A stretch of DNA of 41,714 nucleotides, taken from IMG/VR virus record IMGVR_UViG_2537562190_000018. The stretch is one strand, 5' to 3'. Made by a program: the position numbers. Of this stretch, positions 36,001 through 39,000 are shown piece by piece (the stretch's first letter is position 1; each line of letters begins with the position of its first letter). This DNA is from a virus. Lineage: Duplodnaviria > Heunggongvirae > Uroviricota > Caudoviricetes.

Positions 36001-39000
36001 GTGGCAGCATGACACCGGACATTATCCTGCAGCGTACCGGGATCGACGTGAGAGCTGTCGAACAGGGGGATGATGCATGGCACAAATTACGGCTCGGCGT
36101 CATCACCGCTTCAGAGGTTCACAATGTGATAGCAAAACCCCGCTCCGGAAAGAAATGGCCTGACATGAAAATGTCCTACTTCCACACCCTGCTTGCCGAG
36201 GTTTGCACCGGTGTGGCTCCGGAAGTTAACGCTAAGGCGCTGGCCTGGGGAAAACAGTACGAGAACGACGCCAGAGCCCTCTTTGAGTTCACTTCCGGCG
36301 TGAATGTTACTGAATCCCCGATCATCTATCGCGACGAAAGTATGCGCACCGCCTGCTCTCCCGATGGTTTATGCAGTGACGGCAACGGCCTTGAACTGAA
36401 ATGCCCGTTTACCTCCCGGGATTTCATGAAGTTCCGGCTCGGTGGTTTCGAGGCCATAAAGTCGGCTTACATGGCCCAGGTGCAGTACAGCATGTGGGTG
36501 ACGCGAAAAGATGCCTGGTACTTTGCCAACTATGACCCGCGCATGAAGCGTGAAGGCCTGCATTATGTCGTGATTGAGCGGGATGAAAATTACATGGCGA
36601 GTTTTGACGAGATGGTGCCGGAGTTCATCGAAAAAATGGACGAGGCACTGGCTGAAATTGGTTTTGTATTTGGGGAGCAATGGCGATGAAGCATCCTCAC
36701 GATAATATCCGGGTAGGCGCGATCACTTTCGTCTACTCCGTTACAAAGCGAGGCTGGGTATTTCCCGGTCTTTCTGTTATCCGAAATCCACTGAAAGCAC
36801 AGCGGCTGGCTGAAGAGATAAATAATAAACGAGGGGCTGTATGCACAAAGCATCTCCTGTTGAATTAAGAACGAGTATCGAGATGGCACATAGCCTTGCT
36901 CAAATTGGAGTCAGGTTTGTGCCAATACCAGTAGAAACAGACGAAGAATTTCATACGTTAGCCGCATCCCTTTCACAAAAGCTGGAAATGATGGCGGCGA
37001 AAGCAGAAGCAAACGAGAGAGACCCGGCATGACAACAACAGAATGCATTTTTCTGGCAGCGGGCTTCATATTCTGTGTGCTTATGCTTGCCGACATGGGA
37101 CTTGTTCAATGACACCTCAGCAAGAAAACGCCCTTCGCAGCATTGCCCGTCAGGCTAATTCTGAAATCAAAAAAGCCAGACAGCAGTTTCCGGATAAAAA
37201 CGTCGATGACATTTGCCGTAGCGTACTGAAGAAGCACCGCGAAACGGTAACGCTGATGGGATTCACACCGACTCATTTAAGCCTGGCAATCGGCATGTTA
37301 AACGGCGTTTTTAAGGAACGGTGAACATGAAAAGCAAAATCATCAGGGAGCTACAGGCTCCTTTTTTATTATTCGCATTTACCCTCAAGCGTATTAACCA
37401 ACAATTCAGGGATTAATGAAAGATGGCGGACATCATTGATTCAGCATCAGAAATTGAAGAATTACAGCGCAATACAGCAATAAAAATGCGTCGTCTGAAC
37501 TACCAGACTATATCCGCCACTCATTGTTGTGAGTGTGGCGATCCCATAGATGAACGAAGACGCCTGGTCGTTCAGGGTTGTCGGACTTGTGCAAGTTGCC
37601 AGGAGGATCTGGAGCTTATCAGTAAACAGAGAGGTTCGAAGTGAGCGAAATTAACTCTCAGGCACTGCGTGAAGCGGCAGAGAAAGCCGGTGAAGATAAG
37701 TGGCAGGCTAAAAAAATAAATGGTGATTTTTTCGTTATTCGTCACGGTAGTTATACAAGACAGCATGGCTACACATCGTATCAACCCATTGCGGAGATTG
37801 ATTGTAAGCCAGTCCGGGATTTTGTTGCCAAGGCTAATCCGGCTACCGTGCTGGAATTACTGGATGAACTGGAAGCAGCAAAAAAGCGCATTGCAGAACT
37901 GGAAGCGCGGGAAATACTGCTCCCGGAACGTAGCAGCATGCTTCATCGAACAGATTTTCACGATGATTACCAAACGGTAATGGCATACAAAGTTTCTGAA
38001 GTCATCGATGCAATCCGCGCTACTGGCATTCGCATCAAAGGAGAGTGAGATGATTCACTACCACGGTGGGCCTATTACTCCTGATACGTGCGCAATGAGA
38101 GCATGGAAAGGGCGACATGCGTTTATCAGTTTTGCGCATTCAGGCCAGATCAATCTCGCGGCTGAATACTGTCAGTCGTTCGCGCTGGACAACGGTGCAT
38201 TCACCGCCTGGAAAGCAGCTGGCAAAAACAAAATCGACTGGAGCGATTACTACGAGTTTGTTGCTCGCTGGAAGAATCACCCAGGATTCGATTTTGCCAT
38301 TATCCCGGATGTTATTGATGGCGGAGAGGAGGAAAATGATGCGCTTCTGAATGAGTGGCCTCACGGAAAACTAGCTGGCGTTCCAGTGTGGCACGTGAAT
38401 GAAAGTGACGAGCGATTTATTCATTTGTGCAATGAGTTTCCGCGAGTGGCTATCGGTAGTTGTGGCGACTATGACGTAAAGCGCCCAACTCTTGCGGTAG
38501 CCAGAATGAAAGACCTGATTCGTCACATTGTTGATGGGCATGGTCAGCCGGTTACGAAACTACATGGATTGCGCATGTTAAATCCGCTGATATTCACAAA
38601 ATTACCCTTAGCCAGCGCAGATAGTACGAACGTCGCTCGAAACATCGGTATTGATAAAGCCTGGTCTGGGGCTTATGCACCTGCAAGTAAAGAGACACGC
38701 GCAGCATTAATGGTAGAACGGATTGAGGCACACAATAGCCCTGGTTCTCTTGCGTATTGTGAACAACGCGACCGCTTTGAAATGCAATTGCAACTAGCAC
38801 TTTAAGGACTAACAAATGACCACTATTACCAAAGAACGTATTGAATTGTTCATTAAAAATCCGCTTGAAAACGGGCTTACTCGTGGCGAACAAATGGAAC
38901 TGGCACGAATTGCACTGGCATCACTGGAACGCGAACTGATTCGCCACGAGCATGCCAAATGGTCTGACTCCACATTTGGCTGCGTTGGCCCCATTGGTCC

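Follow-up and report, generated by a model that had tools for sequence, protein, structure and literature searches.

The window studied here, a 41,714-nt stretch of DNA from a virus of the class Caudoviricetes (IMG/VR record IMGVR_UViG_2537562190_000018), is a lambdoid prophage of the Stx1a type in which tail, head and lysis genes, stx1A and Q can be recognized. Among its early genes lies one encoding a 251-aa protein (Table 1) which, judged by its sequence, is a new member of an already catalogued kind of protein, the solitary phage DpdA. The original prediction for this locus, made from the DNA alone, had proposed an open reading frame (ORF) here, and its coordinates, + strand orientation and length are all confirmed, as is the strong ribosome-binding site, which is present as AGGAG. 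Since the TGA of the preceding Ead/Ea22-like ORF ends 1 nt before the ATG, translational coupling of the two genes, which had also been proposed, is plausible. An alternative in-frame ATG at 38008 would give a protein of 265 aa; this longer version was not preferred, because RefSeq and the phage BTP1 annotate the 756-nt version and the homologs begin with MIHYHGG. The protein had been described as rich in acidic and aromatic residues, with several Cys but no zinc ribbon, and it does contain 30 D+E, 25 W+F+Y, 12 H and 5 Cys, with no CxxC or CxCxxC pattern on inspection of the sequence. The ORF is a true gene under selection and not a chance reading frame.

Table 1. Features of the window around the DpdA-like gene and in the rest of the prophage
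Feature	Position	Strand	Remarks
Coding sequence, DpdA-like gene (solitary; 251 aa; minimal TIM barrel of the TGT superfamily)	38050..38805	+	ATG 38050, TAA end 38805; 756 nt
Ribosome-binding site AGGAG	38039..38043	+	6 nt 5' of ATG; read from sequence
Codons L46-D47-N-G-A-F51	38185..38202	+	Putative general acid/base Asp at beta3 end, base-stacking Phe at +4
Codons P86-D87-V-I-D90	38305..38319	+	Putative base-recognition Asp after beta4
Codons P112-V-W-H115	38383..38394	+	Beta5 end; candidate base-edge contact
Codons K170-L-H172-G-L-R175	38557..38574	+	Beta7; conserved His 19 residues before putative nucleophile
Codons S189-A-D191-S-T	38614..38628	+	Beta8 end; putative nucleophile Asp
Terminator-like hairpin 5' of four-gene unit	37345..37363	+	Consensus scan; no evidence on function
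DksA/TraR-type zinc-finger gene	37423..37644	+	First of local co-directional unit; PF01258 E=8.4e-9; phrog_54
Ead/Ea22-like gene	37641..38048	+	PF13935 E=2.6e-17
dATP/dGTP pyrophosphohydrolase (DUF550) + DUF551 gene	38816..39604	+	Downstream neighbour; PF04447 E=1e-41; PF04448
Terminator-like hairpin 3' of four-gene unit	39944..39963	+	8-bp stem then T-run; consensus scan; no evidence on function
phrog_1229 gene, 114 aa	39983-40327	+	phrog_1229 E=1e-51; no Pfam match
stx1A	30641-31597	-	RIP domain E=5.9e-38
Q antiterminator gene	32095-32529	-	Abuts IS element directly
IS3-family element	32566-33992		ORFs 32621-32962 and 32853-33833 (+); rve and HTH_21 domains

DpdA is the DNA paralog of tRNA-guanine transglycosylase (TGT) (PMC6884629). 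Neither Pfam (E<=1) nor NCBIfam scans match the 251-aa protein, and only in this sense is it the accessory protein with no recognizable family of which the original prediction had spoken. PHROGs places residues 1-248 in phrog_887, 'queuine tRNA-ribosyltransferase' (E=1.8e-102), and the 92%-identical ortholog of phage BTP1 has been catalogued as DpdA-only. Tblastn against annotated phages gave identities of 92% for BTP1, 68-69% for Klebsiella phages, 67% for SfI, 60% for many Vibrio phages, 38% for SEN1 and MED16, 36% for HK106 and Salmonella phage 7-11, 31% for Arthrobacter phage Sonali and 25% for Iggyvirus Knedl. Hutinet et al. 2019 surveyed DpdA phages and assigned 76 of them, the most numerous class there, to a 'third group' that has DpdA present and the preQ0/G+ synthesis genes absent (PMC6884629). 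BTP1, SfI, HK106, SEN1 and 7-11 are listed as DpdA-only in its Supplementary Data 1, and the authors found that such singleton DpdAs cluster apart and called for study of their function (PMC6884629). The Pantoea phage MED16, also DpdA-only, encodes gp38 (PMC8306585), which is 34-38% identical to the protein of the window. Apart from that catalogue and the paper on MED16, we found no literature on BTP1 or temperate solitary DpdAs. The proteins of these DpdA-only phages (BTP1 SIU02687, SfI, HK106, SEN1, 7-11, MED16 gp38) belong to the same family (34-92% identity, approximately 235-266 aa) and their phages likewise lack preQ0-synthesis genes, and in the temperate members the gene is also found in the early-left region near xis-int. 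There is no essential difference between them and the protein described here, whose gene resides in an E. coli Stx1a-converting prophage. The members that have been examined experimentally, 7-11 and MED16, are virulent or unrelated phages of which only bulk DNA was analysed.

An alignment of 108 sequences, with the window protein first and comprising two subfamilies with a mutual identity of about 35%, was used for an AlphaFold2 model, which shows eight beta/alpha units at a mean pLDDT of 91.4 and a pTM of 0.89. Whereas no fold could be assigned in the original prediction, the protein is thus predicted to form a (beta/alpha)8 TIM barrel, whose best solved structural neighbours are enzymes of the TGT superfamily; Cap10 is alike in fold only. 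The search for a TIM barrel with conserved Asp residues, which had been recommended there, has turned out positively, with Asp invariant at the ends of beta3, beta4 and beta8, and no confident homology to an unrelated fold came to light. Foldseek comparison of the model with the PDB returned weak, generic TIM-barrel matches only; against predicted viral structures there were 27 matches at E<=1e-3, and all the named ones are phage 'queuine tRNA-ribosyltransferase'. The evidence from the fold by itself is suggestive and not decisive, and becomes convincing jointly with that from the sequence.

The bridge in sequence is provided by the DpdA of Knedl, a Pseudomonas phage (Iggyvirus) in which dpdA sits in a folE-queD-queC-queE-dpdA cluster. 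With hhalign, the profile of our family aligned to Knedl DpdA at 97% probability (E=1e-10) and to a DpdA1 profile at 96%, the motifs LDNGAFS/LDSGAFS, PVWH/PCFH, KiHGLRML/KVHGFGLT and SADSTN/SCDSSS (this family/Knedl DpdA1) being in register. Knedl DpdA1 also matched, by tblastn, 79 of the 80 related loci collected for this study (viral loci of >=65% identity, 930 kb). Sequence hidden Markov models, on the other hand, fail to bridge the family to solved TGT or DpdA structures. Phmmer and a family-profile hmmsearch against PDB sequences gave chance matches only (E>0.3), the DpdA1 profile doing no better, and hhalign of the family profile against E. coli TGT, entered as a single sequence and not as a TGT alignment profile, gave no signal. 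The Pfam TGT model PF01702 does not match the protein, whereas the E. coli TGT control scored E=2.8e-168; DpdA1 is negative as well.

Within the barrel, the putative catalytic residues are laid out much as in characterized enzymes. In bacterial DpdA (bDpdA), D95 is the acid/base, F99 stacks on the base, D130 and H181 read it, and D256, where the beta8/alpha8 loop begins, is the nucleophile (PMC10164549); the corresponding motifs of E. coli TGT are TD89SGGF93Q, FD143EC and FD264C, and Cap10 has D73/S74, D122 and an H226...D248 pair (bioRxiv 10.1101/2025.04.06.647259). D47 of the 251-aa protein (107/108 sequences) ends beta3 (strand 43-47) in the model and is followed at +4 by an aromatic residue, F51 (F or Y in 108/108), with A50 conserved in 108/108. 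Both D47 and F51 align with LD69SGAF73 of DpdA1, in the same register as D95 and F99 of bDpdA, and the resemblance of ALDNGAFTAW to the DSGGFQ segment of TGT, on which the original prediction had ventured a guess, stands, as ALD47NGAF51 is in register with TD89SGGF93Q. D191 (108/108, followed by S192 in 107/108) ends beta8 (strand 189-192), was aligned to SCD212SS of DpdA1 by both hhalign and MAFFT, and matches bDpdA D256 in position. P112, W114 and H115 are conserved in 108/108; H115 ends beta5, is aligned to the invariant H138 of DpdA1, and may be the counterpart of bDpdA His181, going by strand order. H172 (108/108) lies in beta7, is aligned to KVH193GFG of DpdA1, and has a spacing like that of the Cap10 H226/D248 pair. 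P86-D87 is likewise conserved in 108/108, with D87 placed just after beta4 (strand 80-84). D87 is invariant in the family, yet the alignments set the invariant D111 of DpdA1 opposite D90, a position occupied by E, D or G among family members; the 251-aa protein has Asp at both positions. An AlphaFold2 model of a DpdA1 representative, meant to decide between the two, was too poor for this (pLDDT 66.8).

The protein is neither a TGT proper nor a DpdA of the bacterial Dpd system; by its sequence features it belongs, in minimal form, to the branch of the phage DpdAs. With DpdA1 of Queuovirinae and related phages (9g, CAjan, iggy/Knedl) it shares a homologous core, including D, A and F of LDxGAF, PxxH, HG, P, DS and an alpha8 Arg, as well as the absence of a CxCxxC zinc motif and the failure of Pfam TGT to detect it. 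In contrast, identity is only about 20%, DpdA1 is longer by about 60 residues in N- and C-terminal extensions, and its second active-site Asp is shifted by three positions in the alignment. Furthermore, DpdA1 occurs with the folE-queD-queE-queC pathway and up to ~30% of G is modified, whereas the family described here stands alone and relatives show 0.02-0.13% of G. Bacterial DpdA (Salmonella Montevideo, PDB 7UI4; PMC10164549) has a similar active-site layout but is 14% identical and 413 aa long as against 251 aa, and has an Ins8 of ~128 residues, a CxCx2Cx22H zinc site, DpdB, DpdC and a restriction module, all absent here. Ins8 builds the DNA-binding surface of the bacterial enzyme, which also requires the ATPase DpdB (PMC10164549); in our model the beta8-alpha8 connection spans ~21 residues. 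The structural zinc site, CxCx2C...H, is missing from the protein, and since none of its five scattered Cys contributes to a Cys/His ligand set conserved among the 108 sequences, we rejected the idea of a zinc ribbon or other metal site. TGTs (bacterial, archaeal ArcTGT, eukaryotic QTRT1/2; PF01702) have the same fold and catalytic logic (D89SGGF93/D143/D264 versus D47NGAF51/D87 or D90/D191), but the 251-aa protein is shorter by one third and lacks their zinc site, tRNA-binding insertions and C-terminal domains, and the genomic associations of its family are, unlike those of TGT, with DNA-modification genes. Cap10 of type IV CBASS (PDB 9NTN; bioRxiv 10.1101/2025.04.06.647259) is only 9% identical, has its nucleic-acid surfaces remodelled for protein binding, and works with a QueC-like Cap9, an NDG-modified CD-NTase with an N-terminal Gly-rich tail, and Cap11. 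No QueC-like sequence is present in the window or the 80 loci and no CD-NTase is annotated in the reference prophage, so that a Cap10-type operon is not in evidence.

Searches for pathway and partner genes indicate that the gene is solitary. Tblastn with FolE, QueD, QueE and QueC of Knedl gave 0 matches in the window and the 80 related loci, and folE, queD, queE and queC are not annotated in the reference prophage. None of DpdB, DpdC or DpdD-K is found in the annotated prophage and its flanks, and PADLOC returned no match, but the DpdA1 control likewise scored nothing. Among the 80 loci an Ea22-like gene lies upstream in 15, a DUF550/551-like gene downstream in 16, and an integrase within 4.5 kb in 28; in 23 loci a DNA adenine methyltransferase of the Dam or MT-A70 type lies no more than 480 bp away (no more than 37 bp in 18 of these). 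There is no obligatory partner, the best neighbour cluster occurring in 31/80; the downstream dATP/dGTP pyrophosphohydrolase was therefore rejected as part of a system and treated as mosaic context, frequent but not obligatory.

Family members are also found in three fusions, all of which keep the catalytic motifs. P0126 (460 aa), seen in three independent assemblies and in an early-left prophage position, joins a DpdA-like protein to Dam; P0352 joins a D12-class N6-adenine DNA methyltransferase to a DpdA-like protein; and P0379 joins a PTPS/QueD domain with the CxxxHGH signature to a DpdA-like protein. P0379 is encoded at 2840-3847 of L089, a 24-kb, phage-like JGI metagenome contig (Ga0452210_009018), where no QueC, QueE or FolE was detectable within the 9.8 kb examined, so that this would be a partial pathway. 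A further representative, P0387 (399 aa), is apparently fused to a baseplate hub (Phage_GPD) domain, which may be an artefact of gene calling or assembly. E. coli YhhQ transports queuosine precursors. A gene of the Vut_1/YhhQ family precedes the DpdA-Dam fusion, with overlapping start and stop codons (L090-L092, 4540-5004, +); it encodes a short, truncated membrane protein of 154 aa, and the enterobacterial prophage that carries it lies next to fliE/fliF. The Vut_1/YhhQ family has been named as preQ0 transporter (PMC6884629). Neither the window nor any of the 80 closest loci has a YhhQ-like gene. The associations with methyltransferases, QueD and the YhhQ-like protein constitute the best evidence available here for a DNA substrate and a 7-deazaguanine co-substrate.

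The gene is widespread. It is 100% identical to part of the Stx1a-converting phage Stx1a_EH2115, and near-identical copies occur in 204/5426 complete E. coli genomes (~4%), every one of them labelled 'hypothetical protein', with the reading frame intact in 201 of the 204 carriers. The same label is found for the DpdA-like gene in RefSeq and most GenBank records, and is corrected by its identification as a solitary DpdA. Shared sequence words link it to more than 7,800 homologs, relatives fall into 806 clusters (50% identity, E<=1e-3), and homologs are present in many prophages of Salmonella, Shigella, Klebsiella, Serratia, Yersinia and Vibrio. Five copies are plasmid-borne, for example at 88115-88870 of NZ_CP077480.1 (97,453 bp), and the E. 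coli plasmids of ~97 kb that bear the gene are possibly phage-plasmids. A 1719-bp record, OR850331.1 'Staphylococcus phage SA 1298 Kay', encodes a 92%-identical protein and is most likely mislabelled or a contaminant.

As for the prophage itself, the order of genes on the + strand is DUF2528, cIII/kil/gam, bet, exo, small genes, DksA/TraR zinc finger, Ea22-like, DpdA-like, DUF550+DUF551, the phrog_1229 gene, xis and int, which places the DpdA-like gene after the recombination genes and before xis-int, within the delayed-early leftward (pL-type) operon. The equivalent gene has the same position in Salmonella phage BTP1 and coliphage HK106, and in BTP1 the order Ead/Ea22-like then DpdA-like is kept as well. 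Two terminator-like hairpins enclose a unit of four genes, from DksA/TraR to DUF550/551. The DUF550 and DUF551 domains form a single intact ORF of 262 aa in the window, while the counterpart in the reference genome (L004, 20767-21549) is split in the annotation into a partial pseudogene and a shorter gene, window and reference being divergent between 39442 and 39907. The conserved phrog_1229 gene, between DUF550/551 and xis, starts just 3' of the downstream hairpin, which is a strong one. On the other side of the window, stx1B adjoins stx1A, going by a 99.9%-identical reference. Compared with the reference Stx1a prophage, ~10.5 kb running from nin through O, P, cII, cro and cI to the N region are missing, and an insertion sequence (IS) of the IS3 family is present instead. 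Immunity region, replication region and pL are thus apparently all missing, and the prophage, though it still carries stx1, is probably defective.

From this constellation of family, fold, conserved residues and gene associations we infer the substrate, the particular deazaguanine, the level of modification and the biological role. The protein is probably a solitary, minimal DNA-guanine transglycosylase of the TGT superfamily that would mark phage DNA sparsely with a 7-deazaguanine taken from the host. DNA and a 7-deazaguanine are suggested as substrates by the fusion partners and neighbours of the family, namely DNA adenine methyltransferases, QueD and a YhhQ-like transporter, and the phage presumably relies on its host for the base, since folE, queD, queE and queC are absent. 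In line with this, the DpdA of phage 9g, alone in E. coli, inserts dPreQ0 into plasmid DNA from host preQ0, a compound that E. coli makes (PMC6884629). Following the mechanism of TGT and bacterial DpdA, on which ours is modelled, D191 would attack C1' of a flipped-out deoxyguanosine to give a covalent enzyme-DNA intermediate, while D47 would act as general acid in protonating the leaving guanine, and then as base. F51 would stack on the base, D87 (or D90) and H115 would read its edge, and H172 would position the nucleophile. As guanine leaves, preQ0, or possibly the amide ADG, would enter from the host pool of queuosine precursors. ADG is a candidate because the DNA of two DpdA-only phages contains dADG, that of 7-11 at ~0.02% of G (PMC6884629) and that of MED16 at ~0.13% of G (PMC8306585). 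By analogy with these two phages, the outcome would be sparse marks, at tens of sites per genome or fewer and probably in a specific motif, which may work against restriction-type defences as do the marks of orphan DNA-modification enzymes. Since the gene belongs to the delayed-early leftward operon, the enzyme would be made during lytic growth.

Several points weigh against this proposal. The 251-aa protein has neither the structural zinc site nor the large Ins8 that serves bacterial DpdA as DNA-binding surface, no DpdB-like partner is evident in the annotated prophage and its flanks, and the second active-site Asp maps ambiguously, apparently to either D87 or D90. The mass spectrometric data on 7-11 and MED16 come from bulk phage DNA, and from relatives of no more than 34-38% identity, and the dADG of MED16 gave no detectable protection from the restriction enzymes tried (PMC8306585). 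In addition, a consensus scan found no sigma70-like promoter on the + strand between the IS and the DpdA-like gene; because of this, and because the IS3-family element replaces the N-cI-cro-O-P-nin region, expression of the gene may be abnormal in this disrupted prophage. The sequence of the gene is nevertheless identical to that of copies in apparently intact prophages.

One could also think of a tRNA-directed transglycosylase that alters queuosine or preQ in host or phage tRNAs and so biases translation during infection. This is quite unlikely, because PF01702, which detects E. coli TGT so strongly, misses the protein, because the zinc subdomain and the beta8/alpha8 insertion with which TGT holds the anticodon stem-loop are both absent, and because the family is fused or adjacent to DNA adenine methyltransferases and not to tRNA enzymes. 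Moreover, the nearest sequence relatives for which data exist are DNA-modifying DpdAs, and the host already has a TGT of its own. Cap10 illustrates another possibility, a repurposed TGT fold handling a 7-deazaguanine on a partner other than nucleic acid. Such a protein could bind, remove or misdirect NDG, the protein-linked N-terminal 7-amido-7-deazaguanine of type IV CBASS (bioRxiv 10.1101/2025.04.06.647259), interfere with QueC/TGT-based defences, or act on free nucleosides or nucleotides. We regard this too as unlikely, if a little less so than a role on tRNA.

It could also be that the protein is a relic of DpdA, a DNA glycosylase that excises without replacement or a DNA-binding remnant, or decaying cargo of the mosaic 'ea' region. 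The DNA of Orion, a phage with a solitary DpdA, does not contain deazaguanine (PMC6884629), which would fit, as would the loss of the zinc site and Ins8, the highly mosaic region with no obligatory partner, and the IS-disrupted element in which this copy resides. However, the negative result for Orion can be ascribed to its host, which makes no preQ0 (PMC6884629). The invariance of the candidate catalytic and base-binding residues down to ~35% identity speaks for a base-exchange pocket that is being maintained and not for decay, nearly all carrier genomes have the gene intact, and the fusion to QueD and the YhhQ-like neighbour imply ongoing use of deazaguanine. A relic seems the least probable of these three explanations, all of which are less well supported than a solitary DpdA acting on DNA.

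Going further, and with considerable doubt, solitary mini-DpdAs may serve temperate enterobacterial phages, Shiga-toxin phages among them, as orphan 'epigenetic writers'. Lacking a zinc domain, a DpdB-type ATPase and a precursor pathway of their own, they would draw on the host pool to place a few motif-specific 7-deazaguanine marks (possibly ADG directly), and would form one module with the orphan adenine methyltransferases that so often adjoin them or are fused to them, against modification-sensing (Dpd-type) defences. That the protein is a solitary DpdA would not surprise a specialist in phage DNA modification. For anyone taking the subject up, the associations with methyltransferases (Dam, D12, MT-A70), QueD and the YhhQ-like protein are concrete leads, and a zinc-free, partner-free enzyme of 251 aa from tractable phage-host pairs (E. 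coli lambdoid phages, Salmonella BTP1) would lend itself to studies of the minimal size of a base-exchange enzyme, of its deazaguanine and target motif, and of the defences that it evades. If the mini-DpdAs do act as such writers, the 251-aa barrel would be the minimal DNA base-exchange enzyme, and the DNA of Stx phages and P22-like phages would carry a hypermodified base that has gone unnoticed, which in Stx phages could have consequences for host range, for restriction barriers and for detection by sequencing.

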